Virus record (IMG/VR): IMGVR_UViG_3300022538_000532
Coordinates: 1 to 44,899 of that record
DNA length: 44,899 bases
Source: a virus
Lineage: Duplodnaviria; Caudoviricetes
Reading direction: 5' to 3' (one strand)
Both the position numbers and the translations under genes were made by a program. This document shows, piece by piece, positions 118 through 44,899 of this stretch (its first letter is position 1; every line of letters starts with the position of its first letter). Below the pieces are notes generated by a model. It was given only the letters and a program-made list of their open reading frames with translations. It made no database searches and was not told where the DNA came from.

Positions 118-251
118 TACTTAGAAAGAACTAAGAAACGTCAATAAATGACAAAAGAAACTGGGAAGATTATATTTAATTGTATATAAAAGTGGTTATT
201 TAAGGATATATAATCACCATCAACGTCACGTTCACGATTACGAACGGTCAC
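118..251. repeat. Left arm of imperfect inverted repeat flanking the poly(dA) junction
   Basis: 165-251 aligns without gaps to the reverse complement of 44694-44780 (68/87 identical by manual count); 118-130 TACTTAGAAAGAA is the exact reverse complement of 44790-44802. Confidence 0.9.
133..152 (+). promoter_or_regulatory. Dispersed 20-bp motif, copy 1 (AAGAAACGTCAATAAATGAC)
   Basis: Matches the approximate consensus MAGAAAHGTCAATWWWYRAY found 16 times in the window. Confidence 0.75.
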
Positions 252-315
252 GGATAAAGACATTTAAATTTATTAAAAACCATTAAATATAAATTAAATT
301 TCTATAAAATAATCC

Positions 316-5011: not shown

Positions 5012-5914
5012 ATGTCTAACTTCAACTTAATAAATCCAGAAATAGAAACCCCATCTCCAAAAGCAAAAGGTTTCCTTCCCAAGCGTGAAAACGTACAACT
5101 CGCTTGCCCTGCAAATGATCTTCGCCTTCAAAAAATAGGAGAATTTGTCTTCGCCCAGCCAAAACTGAACGGCGAACGCTGCAGAATAGAATGGATTTCA
5201 GGAAAACCACATTTAATTTCTTCTTATGGAAATGAATTTCAATTCATAGAGCATATCCAAGAAGCTCTCCTCTCTACCCCAATCCATAAAAACGTTCCTT
5301 ATGACGGAGAAATCTATATCCATGGCTGGCCACGAGAAAGAATTGACTCAGCCTTAAGACGAACCAAAAATAGAAACCCTGAAGTAGAAAAACTTCAATT
5401 TCACATTTTTGATATTCAAAGATACGATCACAAGCAAACAATCCGTTATCAAGAACTTCAATACCACAAAAAGTATTTTACAAATCCCCTCTATCTTGTT
5501 CCTACTGACATAATCAGATCACAAGATTGGACAAAAGCAGTAGCAGAATACGTCTCCCAAGACTACGAAGGAGCAATCTTCCGTAATCCCGAAGCCCTAT
5601 ACACCTCAAAGCGTTCAACAAAAATAATGCTTAAATCCAAACCAACTAAAAAAGACGTTTATCTCATCCTCGGAATCGAAGAAGCTATCTCTCAAGAAGG
5701 AGTCCCTAAAGCCATGATAGGTTCCTTCCTTGTAATAGGCGGAGATAATTCCCCCTTCAAAGTCGGTGCAGGAAAACTTTCTCATAAAGAAAGAAAAGCC
5801 CTTTGGCAAAGCAGAAAAATACTTATAGGAAAGAAACTTCTTGTAAAACATGAAGAGTTAAAAACAATAAACAATATACCTATCGCGGCAGTTGCTGTAG
5901 AGGTAATAGTATAA
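5012..5914 (+). CDS. lig: ATP-dependent DNA ligase
   Basis: KLNGER (KxDGxR-like adenylation motif), DGEIY, FHIFD, YEGAIFR, MLKSKP, C-terminal OB-like region. Confidence 0.88.
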   Translation: MSNFNLINPEIETPSPKAKGFLPKRENVQLACPANDLRLQKIGEFVFAQPKLNGERCRIEWISGKPHLISSYGNEFQFIEHIQEALLSTPIHKNVPYDGEIYIHGWPRERIDSALRRTKNRNPEVEKLQFHIFDIQRYDHKQTIRYQELQYHKKYFTNPLYLVPTDIIRSQDWTKAVAEYVSQDYEGAIFRNPEALYTSKRSTKIMLKSKPTKKDVYLILGIEEAISQEGVPKAMIGSFLVIGGDNSPFKVGAGKLSHKERKALWQSRKILIGKKLLVKHEELKTINNIPIAAVAVEVIV

Positions 5915-6794: not shown

Positions 6795-7250
6795 ATGGCG
6801 AAGAAAACAGAGGAAGCAAAGGGAGTAGAAGTAGAAGTAGAAACAAAGGGAGTAGAAGTAACGGAAACTGTATCAAAGAGAGCAAAGAAATTGTCAAAGA
6901 CAGTTAATTACAACAATAGCACTATCACCATTGAAGCACTCGGCGGTAAAAATGGTGCTGTAACCTATGCCTTTACAGATTTGCCCGAAACAATCCAGGC
7001 TAAATTCGGCCCATTCGGTCTCTCCCATAAACTCGGCGACGCAGCTGCAGGCAAAACGGGTATTGAAGCTGAGGAAGCAGTCCTTAAAGTATTCGAAGGT
7101 CTCAAAAATGGAGAATGGTCAGTTCGTGCTCCAGCAAAGCCAAAGGTATCTGTAAATAAAATCCTGGATAACTACAAAAACCTCGATCCATTACAGCAAA
7201 AGGCCGCTGCCAAACTTCTCGAGGATCTCGGTATTACACTGCCGGCATAA
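6795..7250 (+). CDS. Hypothetical phage protein (GLxxKL family; paralog of 43900)
   Basis: Start moved to MAKKTEE (AAGGAG RBS; the track's ATG overlaps the -10 box). Confidence 0.8.
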   Translation: MAKKTEEAKGVEVEVETKGVEVTETVSKRAKKLSKTVNYNNSTITIEALGGKNGAVTYAFTDLPETIQAKFGPFGLSHKLGDAAAGKTGIEAEEAVLKVFEGLKNGEWSVRAPAKPKVSVNKILDNYKNLDPLQQKAAAKLLEDLGITLPA

Positions 7251-7351: not shown

Positions 7352-7466
7352 GGAAGCAGTGGCGGAATTGGTAGACGCTAAAAGTATGCGGAAGAGAAGA
7401 GATAGGAATTGGCTGCCACCGCTTTAAGCTTACCTATCATACAGGTTCGAATCCTGTCTGCTTCCA
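7352..7466 (+). ncRNA. tRNA-like RNA 1 (Leu-type D arm, T arm, 8-bp acceptor stem; no canonical anticodon arm, ~60-nt insert)
   Basis: GGAAGCAG...CTGCTTCC-A stem; TGGCGGAATTGGTAGACGC; ACAGG-TTCGAAT-CCTGT. Confidence 0.8.
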
Positions 7467-7481
7467 TCTTAAACAAAATAT

Positions 7482-7613
7482 GGAAGCAGTGGCGGAATTG
7501 GTAGACGCTTAGTTATGTCGTAAATTGAGTACTGTCCACGCCGAAAGGTTCTGAGTAAGTTAAGTGGAGGTCGCCTAATCTCAATATGCAGGTTCGAATC
7601 CTGTCTGCTTCCA
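7482..7613 (+). ncRNA. tRNA-like RNA 2 (same scaffold, unrelated ~77-nt structured insert)
   Basis: Identical 5' 31 nt and near-identical 3' 40 nt to copy 1; insert has ATTGAG/CTCAAT, TCCAC/GTGGA and CC-GAAA-GG helices. Confidence 0.8.
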
Positions 7614-13459: not shown

Positions 13460-15904
13460 ATGAAAGTTCCAATTACTGGCCCTCCAAATGCAAAGATCCT
13501 ACTTGTCGGTGAAGCTCCTGGAGCTGAAGAAGATCGCCAAGGAAAACCTTTTATAGGGCAGGCTGGAAGAACTCTTGATTTACTCCTTTCCAATGCAGGA
13601 ATTTCAAGACATGATTGCCTAATAACAAATGTAGCTAAGGAAAGACCACCTGGAAATAAAATAGCTTTTTATTATGAGGATAAAAAATGTACTCGACCTA
13701 AACCTATAATGCAAGAATGGATTAAAGAACTTAAAAAAGAAATAGAATTTTATAATCCAAATATAGTTATCCCTCTCGGAGCTATTGCATTACAAACTAT
13801 CTGTGGAATATCCGGCATTCAAGCTTATCGAGGATACATAATGGAAAGTACTTTAGTACCAAGACAAAAAGTACTTCCTACTTATCATCCACAAGCAGTT
13901 GGTTATGACTGGAAATTACATTTCCCGACTATCATGGATTTAAGAAAGGCAGTTAAAGAAAGTGAAATATCAAAACTTCCTAAAGATAATAGAAAACTTA
14001 ATTGTACTTCTACAAAGTTAGAATATATAGGTTACTTAAAATGGCTTCTTAAAGAACATAAAGGCCCTATCGCAGTTGATATTGAAACAACTCAACCTGG
14101 AAGTCATATAGACATCATGGGAATCGCAGATTCTCCTACCCATGCTGTCGCCTTTGAGTTTATTCATAGCAGAAAACCAAAATATTCTTTAGAAGATGAA
14201 CTTGAAATATGGAAACTTCTTGGTAAAGTCTTATCTACAAAAGATTTAATAATGCATAATGGGAGTTATGATGCTGCAGTAATATGGTATAATAACGGAA
14301 TTTTTTGTAAGAATTTTAAATACGATACTATGATAGCGGGTCATGCAGCCTGGCCTGAATGCCCAAGAAGTCTTGCCTTTATGTCATCTATCTGTTTAAA
14401 TGTACCTCCTTGGAAACATCAAAGTCAATCTCTCCCACTTCTTTACAATGCCGCAGATGCAGCAAATACATTTGGAATTTGGGAAGTAATGGAAACTGAA
14501 ATGGAAAAACTTAAAGTTAGAAATACTTTTGATTTTGAAATGAGCCAAGTATTTCCAGCTATGATGCTTCAACTTCAAGGACTTTATGTAGATTTAAATA
14601 AAAGAAAAATAATAAAAAAAGAAATAGAAGAAAGATTAGAAGAACTCAAAGAAGAACTTACACAAGATTTAGGAAAAGAAGTTATTCTTAAAGCAGATAA
14701 AAAGAAAAAGAATACTTTAAATATAAATTCCTCAAAACAACTTGCTGAACTTCTTTATATAGATATGGGACTTCCGGTTCAGTATAAAAGAAGAAAGTCA
14801 GTACAAGATACAAGAACAACTACGGCTGATGCAGAAGCCCTTAATAAACTTACTCGTCAAACAAAGAATCCAGTTCTTCTTAAAATTCTTGAGGTAAAGA
14901 AATTAAGTAAATTATCCAATTCTTTTATTAACATGGAAGTTTCTCCGCAAAGTCGAGTTCATACTTGTTATAATGTAACAGGAGCGACGATGTCAAGAAC
15001 TGGAACAGGAAAACAGAAAGGATTAATTATAGATGACGAAGAGAATTATAAAAGTTTCGGAAGATGGAGTAGTTCTAAATCTATCATCTTACCGTACGGA
15101 AGCGGAAACTTACAGAATATTCCGTACGCTGCTCGTAAACTATATACAGCACCGAAGGGATATTGCTTCCTCCAAGCCGATTATAAACAAGCCGAAGCCG
15201 TAGTCGTTGCTTTTAATATAGGAGATCAGAAATTAATAAATATGTTCTCTAACGCCTTCGGAAAGAGTAATGAATATTGTAAAGAACAGGGCTGGGATAT
15301 ACATAAACTTACCGGAGCCAGTATGTTCGGAGTAGATATAAAAGATGTTACTCCAGAACAAAGAAAAGTTGGAAAATTACTTCGTCATGCAACTAACTAC
15401 GCTGCTGGGCCAGGAGTAATCGCTCCTAAACTTGGAATTGCAATAACACAAGCAAAGAAATTACTAAAACAATTCATGGGAGCTACTCCTGAACTTCCTC
15501 TTTATCATTCTCGAATCAGAAATGAATTGAGAAAGTCAGGAGTTTTAACCAACCTTCTCGGTAGAAAGCACCGTTTTCTTGAACGCTGGGGAGATACCTT
15601 ATTCAGAAGTGCGTATTCATTTATTCCTCAATCCACAGTTGGAGATTTAATGAATCTTTCTTTAACAAAATTCTATAATAAATATGGAAGCTTATACAAT
15701 ATAGTTCTTCAACTCCATGATGCCATCTATCTAATAATAAAAGAAGAAGAAAAATTTGAAGCCATGCACGCTCTTAAAGAATCCATGATTCGACCTTTAA
15801 AAACAGAAACAGGACAAGAATTTCTTATTGATATAGATTTTTCCTTCGGCCCTGATTGGGGATCACTTGAAGACTTTGATTACTACAAACATTTTGGAGG
15901 TTAA
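13460..15904 (+). CDS. polA: Family A DNA polymerase with N-terminal uracil-DNA-glycosylase-like domain and 3'-5' exonuclease
   Basis: UDG: LVGEAPG, PFIG.AG, TYHP; Exo: VDIET, HNGSYD, YNAADA; Pol: GRWSS, NLQNIP, ADYKQAE, R...K...Y, QSTVGD, LHDA. Confidence 0.93.
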   Translation: MKVPITGPPNAKILLVGEAPGAEEDRQGKPFIGQAGRTLDLLLSNAGISRHDCLITNVAKERPPGNKIAFYYEDKKCTRPKPIMQEWIKELKKEIEFYNPNIVIPLGAIALQTICGISGIQAYRGYIMESTLVPRQKVLPTYHPQAVGYDWKLHFPTIMDLRKAVKESEISKLPKDNRKLNCTSTKLEYIGYLKWLLKEHKGPIAVDIETTQPGSHIDIMGIADSPTHAVAFEFIHSRKPKYSLEDELEIWKLLGKVLSTKDLIMHNGSYDAAVIWYNNGIFCKNFKYDTMIAGHAAWPECPRSLAFMSSICLNVPPWKHQSQSLPLLYNAADAANTFGIWEVMETEMEKLKVRNTFDFEMSQVFPAMMLQLQGLYVDLNKRKIIKKEIEERLEELKEELTQDLGKEVILKADKKKKNTLNINSSKQLAELLYIDMGLPVQYKRRKSVQDTRTTTADAEALNKLTRQTKNPVLLKILEVKKLSKLSNSFINMEVSPQSRVHTCYNVTGATMSRTGTGKQKGLIIDDEENYKSFGRWSSSKSIILPYGSGNLQNIPYAARKLYTAPKGYCFLQADYKQAEAVVVAFNIGDQKLINMFSNAFGKSNEYCKEQGWDIHKLTGASMFGVDIKDVTPEQRKVGKLLRHATNYAAGPGVIAPKLGIAITQAKKLLKQFMGATPELPLYHSRIRNELRKSGVLTNLLGRKHRFLERWGDTLFRSAYSFIPQSTVGDLMNLSLTKFYNKYGSLYNIVLQLHDAIYLIIKEEEKFEAMHALKESMIRPLKTETGQEFLIDIDFSFGPDWGSLEDFDYYKHFGG

Positions 15905-41921: not shown

Positions 41922-42392
41922 TTAAAGATCTGGGAGATATTCAGTACTAGTTATTTCTTTAGAAGTTTCATTAACCTCTTCGAGAAGTTCTGTATCAACA
42001 GGTTTTGCTAAGGCTATTTCTTCCTTTTCTATATTTATTAAGTATGAAACAAGACCTTTAACCTCAGTCGGTTTTCCTTCAACTACAAGTTCTTTGTCTT
42101 TAAGGATCTTAAAAGCAGTAACGAGGTCTTTAAGATCAGCCTGTTCTATCTTTTCCGGAGTTATATTTTCTAAAATCCTGGCTTGAAGCTCTGTTAATTG
42201 CAGGCTTTGAAGGGTTCTGTATTGAAGTAGAAGTCCCTGTTTTTCCTGAATATCAGCTATCCGCCTGGAAAGAGTTGGAATAGAAATCCCAAGTTCTGAA
42301 GCCATTTGCTTCTGATTAAGACCCCGAATGGCAAGATCATAAACTGTTTCTGTATCTAAATTTACTTGAGGTCTGCCCATGTTAAATTCCAT
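41922..42392 (-). CDS. HTH protein, probable terminase small subunit
   Basis: GRP...GLNQKQMASELGISIPTLSRR HTH; first gene of the late arm. Confidence 0.55.
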   Translation of the reverse strand: MEFNMGRPQVNLDTETVYDLAIRGLNQKQMASELGISIPTLSRRIADIQEKQGLLLQYRTLQSLQLTELQARILENITPEKIEQADLKDLVTAFKILKDKELVVEGKPTEVKGLVSYLINIEKEEIALAKPVDTELLEEVNETSKEITSTEYLPDL

Positions 42393-42426
42393 TTATTAAT
42401 CAATTTCTACCAATTCATTTACCTCC

Positions 42427-42455
42427 ATCATACCAAATCCATTCTCAGATGTCAA
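42427..42455 (-). promoter_or_regulatory. Sigma70-type promoter driving the structural arm
   Basis: Minus strand TTGACA-17 nt-TATGAT. Confidence 0.75.
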
Positions 42456-42541
42456 GGATAAAATTCTCAGTAATACATATTATTTATTTTCAGTTTAGTT
42501 TAGCTATCCCAGAGCCGATCAAGCTTCGCATCAGCTGGTTT

Positions 42542-42561
42542 GTTATTTATTGACTTTTCTT
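42542..42561 (-). promoter_or_regulatory. Dispersed 20-bp motif, copy 15
   Basis: Reverse complement AAGAAAAGTCAATAAATAAC. Confidence 0.75.
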
Positions 42562-42682
42562 ATTTGTAATCTAAGTATTTAGTGCCGCCGGTAGTTGGGT
42601 TTAAATCTTTTCTTATTTGTTTTTAAGTAGTTAAGTTTTAAAATTTACTCTTCTGTAAAAAAGGTGTCGATCATCATATGTC

Positions 42683-42766
42683 GGGAGTGCCGGTGGGGCT
42701 GGGTGGGGTAGTAAGGGATTTTATGGGAATGGGAGGTTTTAGGGATTTGGCTGAGTTTTGAAGGGA
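42683..42766 (+). other. G-tract cluster (G-quadruplex-capable)
   Basis: Nine runs of 3 or more G within 84 nt. Confidence 0.6.
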
Positions 42767-42805
42767 GTTAGAATGTATAATAATTTCAATAGGTTAGAGA
42801 AGGAC

Positions 42806-42833
42806 TTGACAAAAGAATTTGATTTGATATGAT
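42806..42833 (+). promoter_or_regulatory. Sigma70-type early promoter
   Basis: TTGACA-16 nt-TATGAT with extended -10 TG. Confidence 0.65.
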
Positions 42834-42843
42834 GGAGTCAAGT

Positions 42844-42878
42844 TCAAAACGGTTGTTTGTTTTGATGTTCTTTTACAA
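42844..42878 (+). promoter_or_regulatory. boxB-like hairpin + boxA-like antitermination site
   Basis: TCAAAAC...GTTTTGA hairpin then TGTTCTTTTACAA (E. coli rrn boxA is TGCTCTTTAACA). Confidence 0.5.
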
Positions 42879-42882
42879 TTTG

Positions 42883-43162
42883 TTTAGTTTATGTTCTTAT
42901 TAAGTCCTCGGGATGCATGGAGGGTTTGATATGAAAAAGAAAATATCTATTAAGGATAAGGCCGGAAGTTTGGTCAGGGCAGGTTTACCTAAAGAAGAAC
43001 TGTTTAAATTCTTTGATAGAACTAATCGAGATATTGTTGATTATATTGGATTGTTTGGATTTTTTGGTGTAGGTCAGGATGTTATTTGGGATCTTTACGA
43101 AGAATGGCAAATAATTTAAATTGATTAATTTTCCCGAGGGTTTAATAAAGACATGAACTAAA
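42883..43162 (+). repeat. 31-bp inverted repeat (42883-42913 / 43132-43162) enclosing a gene
   Basis: 26/31 Watson-Crick pairs, plus 4 G-U and 1 C-A on the + strand. Confidence 0.85.
42931..43119 (+). CDS. Hypothetical early protein
   Basis: Start moved to MKKKIS after GGAGG RBS. Confidence 0.65.
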   Translation: MKKKISIKDKAGSLVRAGLPKEELFKFFDRTNRDIVDYIGLFGFFGVGQDVIWDLYEEWQII

Positions 43163-43174
43163 TGAATAATTTGT

Positions 43175-43203
43175 TTGACATTAGTTGGATGATGTTGTAG
43201 GAT
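43175..43203 (+). promoter_or_regulatory. Sigma70-type early promoter
   Basis: TTGACA-17 nt-TAGGAT. Confidence 0.7.
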
Positions 43204-43310
43204 GTTAGACAAGTTAAACGGTGTTGGATGTCAATGGCATTCATCGGAATCAATCATGCGTAACGGCATGGGCAATGACACGGAAATGGTCGTGTGGGTT
43301 CCAAATAGCC

Positions 43311-43323
43311 GATTCTTTGACAA
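43311..43323 (+). promoter_or_regulatory. boxA-like site
   Basis: GATTCTTTGACAA just before the next long stem; same arrangement as 42866. Confidence 0.5.
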
Positions 43324-43327
43324 TTAG

Positions 43328-43720
43328 AATGGAATACATAATGGGCGTCATGGTTATAAATGAATGACCGTGTGCGGGCAATTTGGGCGTTTAAATGAAA
43401 TGTATGCGTCAAAACCGTCTAATCACGAAAGGATTTCAATGGCCAAACCAAAAAGAGAACTTACATATACCGGAATAAAAGACTTTAAAAAGATGAAAAC
43501 ATATAAGAAAAATGGTAAGAAACGCCTTAAAGTTAGTTTTATAGGTATGAAAGAACAAATAGTTATTCCCGGAATTATTACAGCAGTTTATTACGACGAA
43601 AATAAAAAGGGAATGACTATTGTGGTGAAGGATTAAATTGTAAGATTAATACACAAAACGTCCATATTTGCGGTTTAACGGTATCGGTCATTGACCATGA
43701 TACCCATTATGTATTCCATT
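43328..43720 (+). repeat. 27-bp inverted repeat (43328-43354 / 43694-43720) with inner extensions, enclosing a gene
   Basis: 25/27 match; extra helices 43363-43370/43685-43692 and 43381-43392/43656-43667. Confidence 0.85.
43439..43636 (+). CDS. Hypothetical early protein
   Basis: Start moved to MAKPKR after AAGGA RBS. Confidence 0.6.
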   Translation: MAKPKRELTYTGIKDFKKMKTYKKNGKKRLKVSFIGMKEQIVIPGIITAVYYDENKKGMTIVVKD

Positions 43721-43899
43721 AGGAACGTCCGGTGTCGATGGGATTTGGACGTTTAAATCGGTATTGTAGAACGTACCGGCGGGAATAAACGGAATCGCCG
43801 AACGTAAATCGCAGGAATACCATAAATAATAGACAAAATTTTATAGGCTTAATTAAAGTCAGTCGTTTCCTTTTATCAAACAAAAAAGGAATAATAAAA

Positions 43900-44502
43900 A
43901 TGACTGAATTTAAAAACGAAAAAGAAAGCGGAATAGTAAAAAAAGGTTTTAAAGCTGGAGATTTCAAAACATATTCTTTAACAAAAGATGTAGAAAGTCT
44001 CTTCGAAAATAACTTCGACACAGCCAAAATAAATTGGATCGAACCAAGTTATGAAAAGGATTCTAAGGAAAGAAACTTAAGACTTGAATTTTGTAACCAA
44101 ATTTCTGGAGAAGAAAAAACTGAAGCAAGAATTTTGGTTTTATTTCACATGGATAAGTTCTGTCCTCAGTGGTATCAGCTTGATGGAATAAGTCGATTTG
44201 CAATGGTTTACGGCTTAAAACAGAAATTAGCAAGTGATATATCTTCCTTATCAAGAAAAACAAAATTCAAAAATCTTGAAGAAGAAAGACTCGAAAAAAT
44301 CCTTGATGTTTATGAAATGCTCTCTTTAGAAAGAACTTTATCAAGAAAAAGAAAAGCCGGGAAATCAAAGATTTCCAAAGATGAAATAGAAAGAAATAAA
44401 CTTCAGCAAATTTGGGATGATGCAACTCCTGAAATAAGAAACGCCTTAGCAAATATGCCAGATTTTATGCAATTCGTTGAAAAGGATTTGAGTAAAATGT
44501 AA
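43900..44502 (+). CDS. Hypothetical early protein (GLxxKL family; paralog of 6795)
   Basis: 200 aa, AAGGA RBS; YGLKQKLASD motif. Confidence 0.75.
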   Translation: MTEFKNEKESGIVKKGFKAGDFKTYSLTKDVESLFENNFDTAKINWIEPSYEKDSKERNLRLEFCNQISGEEKTEARILVLFHMDKFCPQWYQLDGISRFAMVYGLKQKLASDISSLSRKTKFKNLEEERLEKILDVYEMLSLERTLSRKRKAGKSKISKDEIERNKLQQIWDDATPEIRNALANMPDFMQFVEKDLSKM

Positions 44503-44506
44503 TTTT

Positions 44507-44526
44507 AAGAAAAGTCAATAATCAAC
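44507..44526 (+). promoter_or_regulatory. Dispersed 20-bp motif, copy 16
   Basis: AAGAAAAGTCAATAATCAAC, just after a stop codon. Confidence 0.75.
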
Positions 44527-44693
44527 ATATTAAAATAAATAGAAATGACTGGCTTTAATTAAGTTTATAAATTTTGAAGAAAAAGGAATTTAAGAAGGAA
44601 TTTGGTTTTCTTAAAAAGGCTGTATTCGTGATTTCGTGAATTTTGTTTCTAAATTATTGAATTTATTGGGTTTTTTATGGATTCCGTGAAATT

Positions 44694-44899
<206 letters not shown>

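Follow-up and report, generated by a model that had tools for sequence, protein, structure and literature searches.

The antitermination complex of bacterial rrn operons is regarded as a state of RNA polymerase that is stable and specific to rRNA; its part in bringing a 5' arm to a distant 3' arm for RNase III is known almost exclusively from work on rRNA. Among phages, the RNase III sites of T7 are local hairpins between genes, unlike the long-range, gene-enclosing helices described here, and a boxA lies in the T3/T7 early region (not found in the literature searched). In E. coli, assembly of the rrn complex starts from boxA, and RNase III cuts the leader-trailer helices into which the flanks pair (available parts of PMC10250234 and PMC8632103); the assembled complex bridges the 5' and 3' arms and raises co-transcriptional RNase III cutting (available part of bioRxiv 10.64898/2026.03.17.712431). 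Phage lambda, with nut and N, transcribes its early genes with the help of boxA and the host's Nus factors (PMC10250234, same parts). Host RNase III cuts T7 messages; a site is found in most T7 transcripts, whose protein yield is optimal only after maturation (available parts of PMC3867540). Two non-phage systems are also close: the Coxiella 23S intervening sequence (IVS), where an ORF within a stem is excised by RNase III (available parts of PMC4990558), and S. aureus icaR, where RNase III is drawn to pairing between the 5' and 3' UTRs of a single mRNA (available parts of PMC3868564).

The phage locus analysed here resembles an rrn operon in having a strong promoter, a boxA of the same form, a flanking helix that loops out one unit (25-45 bp in rrn operons) and a boxA repeated before the second unit (PMC10250234, PMC8632103). 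Unlike in an rrn operon, the enclosed unit codes for protein and has a Shine-Dalgarno (SD) site of its own, the loops are 200-700 nt long and boxA is absent in many of the phage lineages. Lambda differs in that it needs N protein and boxB and is without a gene-enclosing helix; no N-like protein was identified in the present phage. The Coxiella IVS lies inside rRNA, is quickly degraded and, as far as the available parts of its report go, apparently untranslated, while icaR pairing is described as short, placed over the SD and repressive for translation, in contrast to the phage helices, which are long and avoid the SD. A search by titles and abstract openings, with most subscription and older phage literature outside its scope, found no paper describing boxA-headed helices around phage genes. 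The parts (rrn, lambda nut, T7 processing) are thus known, and no example of them combined around protein-coding genes came up in this incompletely covered literature. The present case adds a comparison of 46 lineages, a boxA test derived from rRNA operons and an adjacent strand-symmetric control.

Three consecutive early genes enclosed by long-range helices

The window, i.e. the whole 44,899-nucleotide stretch of DNA analysed, is an entire podovirus-like phage contig, in which terL, portal, major head, PolA and Sak4 were identified and whose ends are broken in an A-run. Both sequencing runs containing the phage are marine sediment DNA. No cultured close relative was found (best terL match 40%), and the host is unproven because the six genome matches, all MAG contigs, fall in six different groups, one of them a Desulfobacterales MAG. 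Late genes occupy the - strand up to 42392 and early genes the + strand from 42931 onwards, across the contig junction; the skew minimum (42532) coincides with this transcription switch and lies outside the poly(dA) repeat. The features of the switch region are as follows.

41922..42392, - strand: divergent HTH gene, likely the terminase small subunit (TerS)
42806..42833, + strand: promoter-like site P1, sigma-70 type with extended -10 (11/12)
42866..42878, + strand: boxA-like site 1 (rRNA-matrix score 15.9)
42878..42913, + strand: stem S1, 5' arm (pairing probability 0.95)
42931..43119, + strand: 62-aa ORF with SD site, no family, inside S1
43132..43167, + strand: stem S1, 3' arm
43175..43203, + strand: promoter-like site P2 (10/12)
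43311..43323, + strand: boxA-like site 2 (rRNA-matrix score 17.3)
43328..43356, + strand: stem S2, 5' arm
43439..43636, + strand: 65-aa basic ORF, no family, inside S2 (90 aa if translation starts at the in-frame ATG, 43364)
43692..43720, + strand: stem S2, 3' arm
43836..43869, + strand: stem S3, 5' arm
43900..44502, + strand: 200-aa first-early family member with the core G-x-x-Q-K-L, inside S3
44542..44575, + strand: stem S3, 3' arm

The TerS label follows from the position of the gene before terL; its match to phrog_309 is weak (E 0.007), and the gene served as an anchor for finding relatives.

We found the three ORFs (42931, 43439, 43900) each bracketed by an inverted repeat, where the original prediction had placed arms and genes. 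The helices are 29-36 bp long. With the arms as first proposed, S1 comprises 26 Watson-Crick pairs, four G-U and one C-A, and S2 25 Watson-Crick pairs, one G-U and one C-A; S3, in the register listed above, has 29 Watson-Crick pairs, four G-U and one U-U. The proposal that nine of 11 substitutions are G-U therefore stood for its nine G-U and two C-A pairs and had missed the U-U. Once G-U is allowed, the 5' arm of S1 reaches back to 42878. When its own unit was folded in silico, each arm paired with a probability of 0.93-0.96, while the SD-ATG stretches stayed 43-66% unpaired. Gene enclosure was scored for 57 window genes as the pairing of 200 nt upstream with 350 nt downstream; only three genes passed 29 (50.5, 47.5 and 45.0), the next best reaching 24.0, and none of 100 dinucleotide shuffles of 42801-44600 yielded a stem scoring at least 32. 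Long-range folding, one of the checks originally suggested, thus bore the stems out. A scan of the circularised window for long-range helices returned four on the + strand, all consecutive, the fourth being the poly(dA) repeat treated below. Rfam gave no rRNA or other family match in the stem region, and the enclosed units are ORFs, not rRNA.

Sigma-70-type promoter-like sites ahead of the first two stems were likewise present as predicted; P1 and P2 are two of the three best promoter scores in a scan that gave 17 sites in total against 17.6 by chance. Within the window, the conserved unit S3 is without its own boxA or promoter. No + strand terminator was predicted between P1 and the A-run. 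Several short hairpins were predicted in the inter-unit spacers (43205-43310 and 43722-43830), one set, possibly boxB-like, directly before boxA 2.

No homologues of the two small ORFs (62 and 65 aa) were detected in the fetched loci. The family of the 43900 protein is present in 98 of 190 loci, in most cases leading the genes that diverge from TerS. A paralogue at 6795-7250 of the window has no enclosing stem, and in L008 and L015 a second family copy, also stemless, lies deeper in the early region. The family has no PHROG or Pfam counterpart, only unnamed viral clusters in the Atlas, and no PDB sequence match; a confident structure model (pLDDT 88, built on relative L018) gave no Foldseek hit at E<=0.001 and no clear fold match (best Z 4.9).

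Several further observations were made on the window. A 13-bp motif, AAGAAAWGTCAAT, is dispersed through it with 14 matches against 0.8 expected, mostly intergenic, and is also present in 7 of 233 loci; it is possibly an operator or a phage promoter element.

133, 1087, 3112, 5935, 7628, 9848, 11004, 16114, 22969, 28429, 38511, 41422, 42549, 44507, both orientations: matches to AAGAAAWGTCAAT

Two tandem tRNA-like genes (7353-7465 and 7483-7612) share their ends and have long, different middles; the Rfam tRNA model scores them at about 35 bits and ARAGORN detects none. The ORF at 5012-5914 contains a KLNG motif, which we take to resemble that of ATP-dependent ligases, and PolA (13460-15904) has an N-terminus that is uracil-DNA-glycosylase-like by eye. 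A contig of run X2 covering 42070-43764 has a depth of 689 versus 430-450 on the flanking sides, which may stem from terminal redundancy or from sequence that strains have in common.

Conservation and strand bias of the stems in relatives

Relatives were gathered by TerL and TerS searches, giving 190 loci; a locus search with the 43900 protein alone found none. Grouping at 70% identity produced 59 clusters, 55 of them with enough flank: 51 first copies near TerS and four distant paralogue copies, which were kept apart. The 51 first-copy lineages comprise 46 in which the gene diverges from TerS and five in which it is co-oriented. The threshold for an enclosing helix, 29, was chosen after the scores were known, all scores being either <=25 or >=29.5. 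We found the first early gene enclosed by a helix in 34 of the 46 divergent lineages (<70% amino acid identity), whose proteins are a median of 23% identical in the stem-bearing lineages. Controls above threshold were 0/49 TerS flanks, 0/4 distant paralogue copies and 43/2550 non-cognate pairings, the latter mostly between related arms. The design is thus kept among relatives, in agreement with the original prediction, despite arm sequences that are unrelated between units and between lineages. Twelve divergent lineages fell below the threshold (among them L082 through a wrong start call; its real stem scores 52), as did all five co-oriented ones, which form a single clade, so the stem is dispensable. 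In this clade (L052, L053, L056, L059 and L060) the first-early gene is co-oriented with TerS and stemless. The trait is scattered over the TerS tree, requiring eight changes, and 19 of the 34 stem lineages share one clade, so that the lineage counts are not independent.

The geometry of the stems is constrained around the coding sequence. Helices in the 34 lineages are 15-43 bp long (median 28), cluster at 24-33 bp and mostly carry a mismatch, often mid-helix. The 5' arm ends 12-47 nt upstream of the ATG, no arm coming closer than 12 nt, and the 3' arm starts 0-42 nt past the stop codon in 33/34; ribosome-binding sites thus lie outside the arms. SD masking in the manner of icaR or type I toxin mRNAs was rejected, as pairing leaves the SD site uncovered. 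Extra stems surround unrelated ORFs of 54-95 aa in seven other lineages (the case of L044 is weak), i.e. tandem units recur; they are spaced 2-110 nt apart.

Mismatches were counted in a strand-neutral manner, with G-U and A-C treated alike in both helix selection and scoring. Read on the transcribed strand, the 34 helices contain 100 G-U versus 17 A-C pairs (0.52 expected from flank composition), with a G-U excess in 30 lineages and an A-C excess in two. The neighbouring class of AT-centred repeats gave 68:84 by the same measure (Fisher p 3e-12). Covariation was assessed in 12 loci of the 34, chosen because their arms could be aligned, and 20 of 23 pairs vary on both sides; none of 500 shuffles was as high and slid controls gave 2-5 pairs. 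RNAalifold on the same 12 alignable loci found the enclosing helix as the sole helix. In a second sample, a 1695-nt contig differs from the window only by A>G at 43328 and 43336, both in the 5' arm of S2 and both giving G-U (n=2). The G-U bias and the covariation are what the original prediction had expected of RNA-level selection, and the stems are almost certainly selected RNA helices.

The repeats might instead be DNA sites: sites of inversion or recombination, transposon-like ends, or single-stranded DNA hairpins capturing gene cassettes. Different small ORFs do occupy the units in different lineages, and G-T wobble also favours one DNA strand. Double-stranded DNA predicts equal G-U and A-C, as in the neighbouring class and not as in the 100:17 of the gene stems, where the transcribed strand is favoured in 30/34 lineages; moreover, the arms differ between units and lineages and all enclosed genes share one orientation. 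Strand-switch joints, which would mark the inversion that the original prediction had named as its alternative, were absent from two runs, in which contigs drop rare variants. DNA inversion sites and IS terminal repeats were ruled out on the strand bias, the unrelated arms and the lack of joints, and we consider the DNA-site reading as a whole largely refuted and scarcely credible.

A strand-symmetric AT-centred repeat downstream of the stems

Downstream of S3 lies a repeat of another kind.

44692..44785, no strand: AT-centred inverted repeat, left arm, separate from the stem series
44802..44899, no strand: A-run of 98 nt at the contig break inside the AT-centred repeat, true length uncertain
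160..253, no strand: AT-centred inverted repeat, right arm, across the contig junction

The 94-bp helix (44692-44785/160-253) exists only when the window ends are joined, and no contig bridges the A-run. Relatives L023 and L094 have such a repeat unbroken around an internal homopolymer. Inverted repeats that are AT-centred and ORF-free were found downstream of the last stem in 22/24 lineages with enough sequence, compared with 0/41 late-region controls; equivalents occur in L008, L015, L018, L023-L025, L066, L074, L094, L097 and others. These repeats often hold short direct repeats, sometimes homopolymers, and many contigs break there. A terminator-like hairpin precedes the repeat in 8/22 lineages. 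The window transcript may run through its repeat, as there is no + strand terminator before it.

The original prediction counted the poly(dA) tract as a fourth stem-enclosed unit. This was contradicted by the mismatches, which are strand-symmetric both in the class (68 G-U : 84 A-C) and in the window (11:9), and by the lack of an ORF. The symmetry sets the poly(dA) repeat apart in kind from the gene stems. It is likely a DNA-level element such as an origin or terminus; its AT-rich core with flanking repeats would suit a phage origin, with the skew minimum lying elsewhere, at 42532. An RNA duplex at the window repeat is possible, and nothing indicates selection for it. The strand-symmetric repeat serves as a built-in control beside the gene stems and probably locates the origin in a large group of uncultured phages.

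boxA-like sites and the predicted processing of early messages

The boxA matrix was built from 15 rRNA sites only, and the rRNA operons used are from Desulfobacterales, which may not be the host order. With this matrix, the two boxA-like sites were the sole + strand matches in the window, along with two weaker - strand matches (2911 and 6903). Site 1 shares 20/21 nt with the boxA region on the 23S-proximal side in rRNA locus L195, and site 2 shares 18/21 nt with the boxA region in the spacer of rRNA locus L197. Among relatives, 24 of 46 phage leaders matched, with no antisense match and 0.5 expected from shuffles; three of the 24 matches could be -35 hexamers. A strict boxA pattern, chosen after the data had been seen, gave 19 leaders, one antisense match and 0.46 expected. 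The boxA-like sequences of the original prediction are thus enriched far above controls, and they are very probably functional. They end 4 nt before the arms as first drawn; the 4-nt spacing itself is not special and was rejected as a fixed feature, the range among relatives being 2-72 nt. The spacing is also looser than that between enterobacterial boxA and boxC, which is fixed according to the available parts of PMC10250234.

The fetched rRNA operons were compared in the same way. On the 16S side, the 5' arm of the leader-trailer helix contains boxA in 14/15 analysable loci (18 examined), while on the 23S side the helix (outermost segment found) starts 2-60 nt past boxA in 9/10 loci. Phage stems mostly begin after boxA and are therefore closer to the 23S side than to the 16S leaders. 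RNase III and NusB were each present in 5/5 Desulfobacterales genomes checked, which are candidate hosts only, and an inositol-phosphatase family gene in 4/5 of these; NusB and the latter gene bear on a predicted NusB/NusE/SuhB complex at boxA.

boxA and the stems could be independent, with boxA serving only Rho-resistant early transcription or as a Nus-factor sponge and the helices forming by themselves over short loops. Consistent with this, boxA is below threshold in 13/34 stem lineages, three boxA lineages are stemless, the spacing is loose, and the boxA-stem association is weak (p 0.044, with no correction for descent and confounded by kinship); loops of 200-700 nt also fold well in silico, at the pairing probabilities of 0.93-0.96 given above. 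Against it, a stem starts within 72 nt of boxA in 21/24 boxA lineages (2-72 nt, median 22) and the window repeats boxA ahead of two successive stems. We regard independence as distinctly improbable.

We hold it moderately probable that the first early messages are transcribed and matured like pre-rRNA. In this model, the host Nus antitermination complex would assemble at boxA and retain the 5' arm up to the emergence of the 3' arm. The arms would then pair into a helix that host RNase III cuts, and cleavage would release single-gene messages with about half of the helix kept at their paired ends. The paired ends may shield the messages from exonucleases, and the result would be Rho-resistant, fast and lasting expression from host promoters just after DNA entry. 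RNase III probably cuts the stems. A helix of 22 bp, cut so that 2-nt 3' overhangs result, is the idealised substrate of the enzyme (available parts of PMC3867540), and 32/34 phage helices are at least 24 bp long, making them candidate substrates by length.

The pairing, G-U and covariation evidence would fit equally well if the stems formed and stayed uncut, or were nicked on one strand, acting as closed-loop end protectors or folding insulators; the frequent mid-helix mismatch can restrict cutting to one strand (PMC3867540, same parts). Such a role is rather unlikely, given that helix lengths cluster at 24-33 bp, like rRNA leader-trailer helices, that tandem units 2-110 nt apart become separate messages only if cut, and that RNase III is encoded in all five candidate-host genomes. 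Cutting could also shorten message life or time early-gene shut-off, as with icaR or rRNA intervening sequences. The described examples of an ORF within a stem speak for a timer role, as they lead to decay: the Coxiella IVS with its ORF is excised by RNase III and then rapidly decays (PMC4990558), and icaR 5'-3' UTR pairing feeds RNase III (PMC3868564), both as far as the available parts go. Early host-takeover genes may moreover need switching off. icaR pairing, though, masks the SD, whereas in the phages 0/34 arms come within 12 nt of the ATG and the SD-ATG stretches are 43-66% unpaired; the boxA look-alikes, too, suggest boosted rather than damped transcription. We therefore find the timer unlikely.

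Maturation in the manner of pre-rRNA, the reading that we prefer, can be taken further. In a full pathway, boxA-headed stems would be reusable sockets for swapped early genes, host rrn complexes would deliver the ends, RNase III would release end-clamped messages, and the many boxA transcripts would divert Nus factors from the host's own rRNA synthesis; in this complete form we consider it doubtful. Ligation of the ends into circular mRNA, for which we found no support here, is very improbable.

Taken at the level of sequence, it is likely that these phages borrow the host machinery for rRNA transcription and cutting to release their first messages. If this is true, the rrn antitermination pathway can be hijacked for protein-coding messages, and the relatives would offer dozens of short natural substrates, some with boxA and some lacking it, on which to test the delivery model. 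It would also suggest a portable route to end-protected bacterial mRNA.
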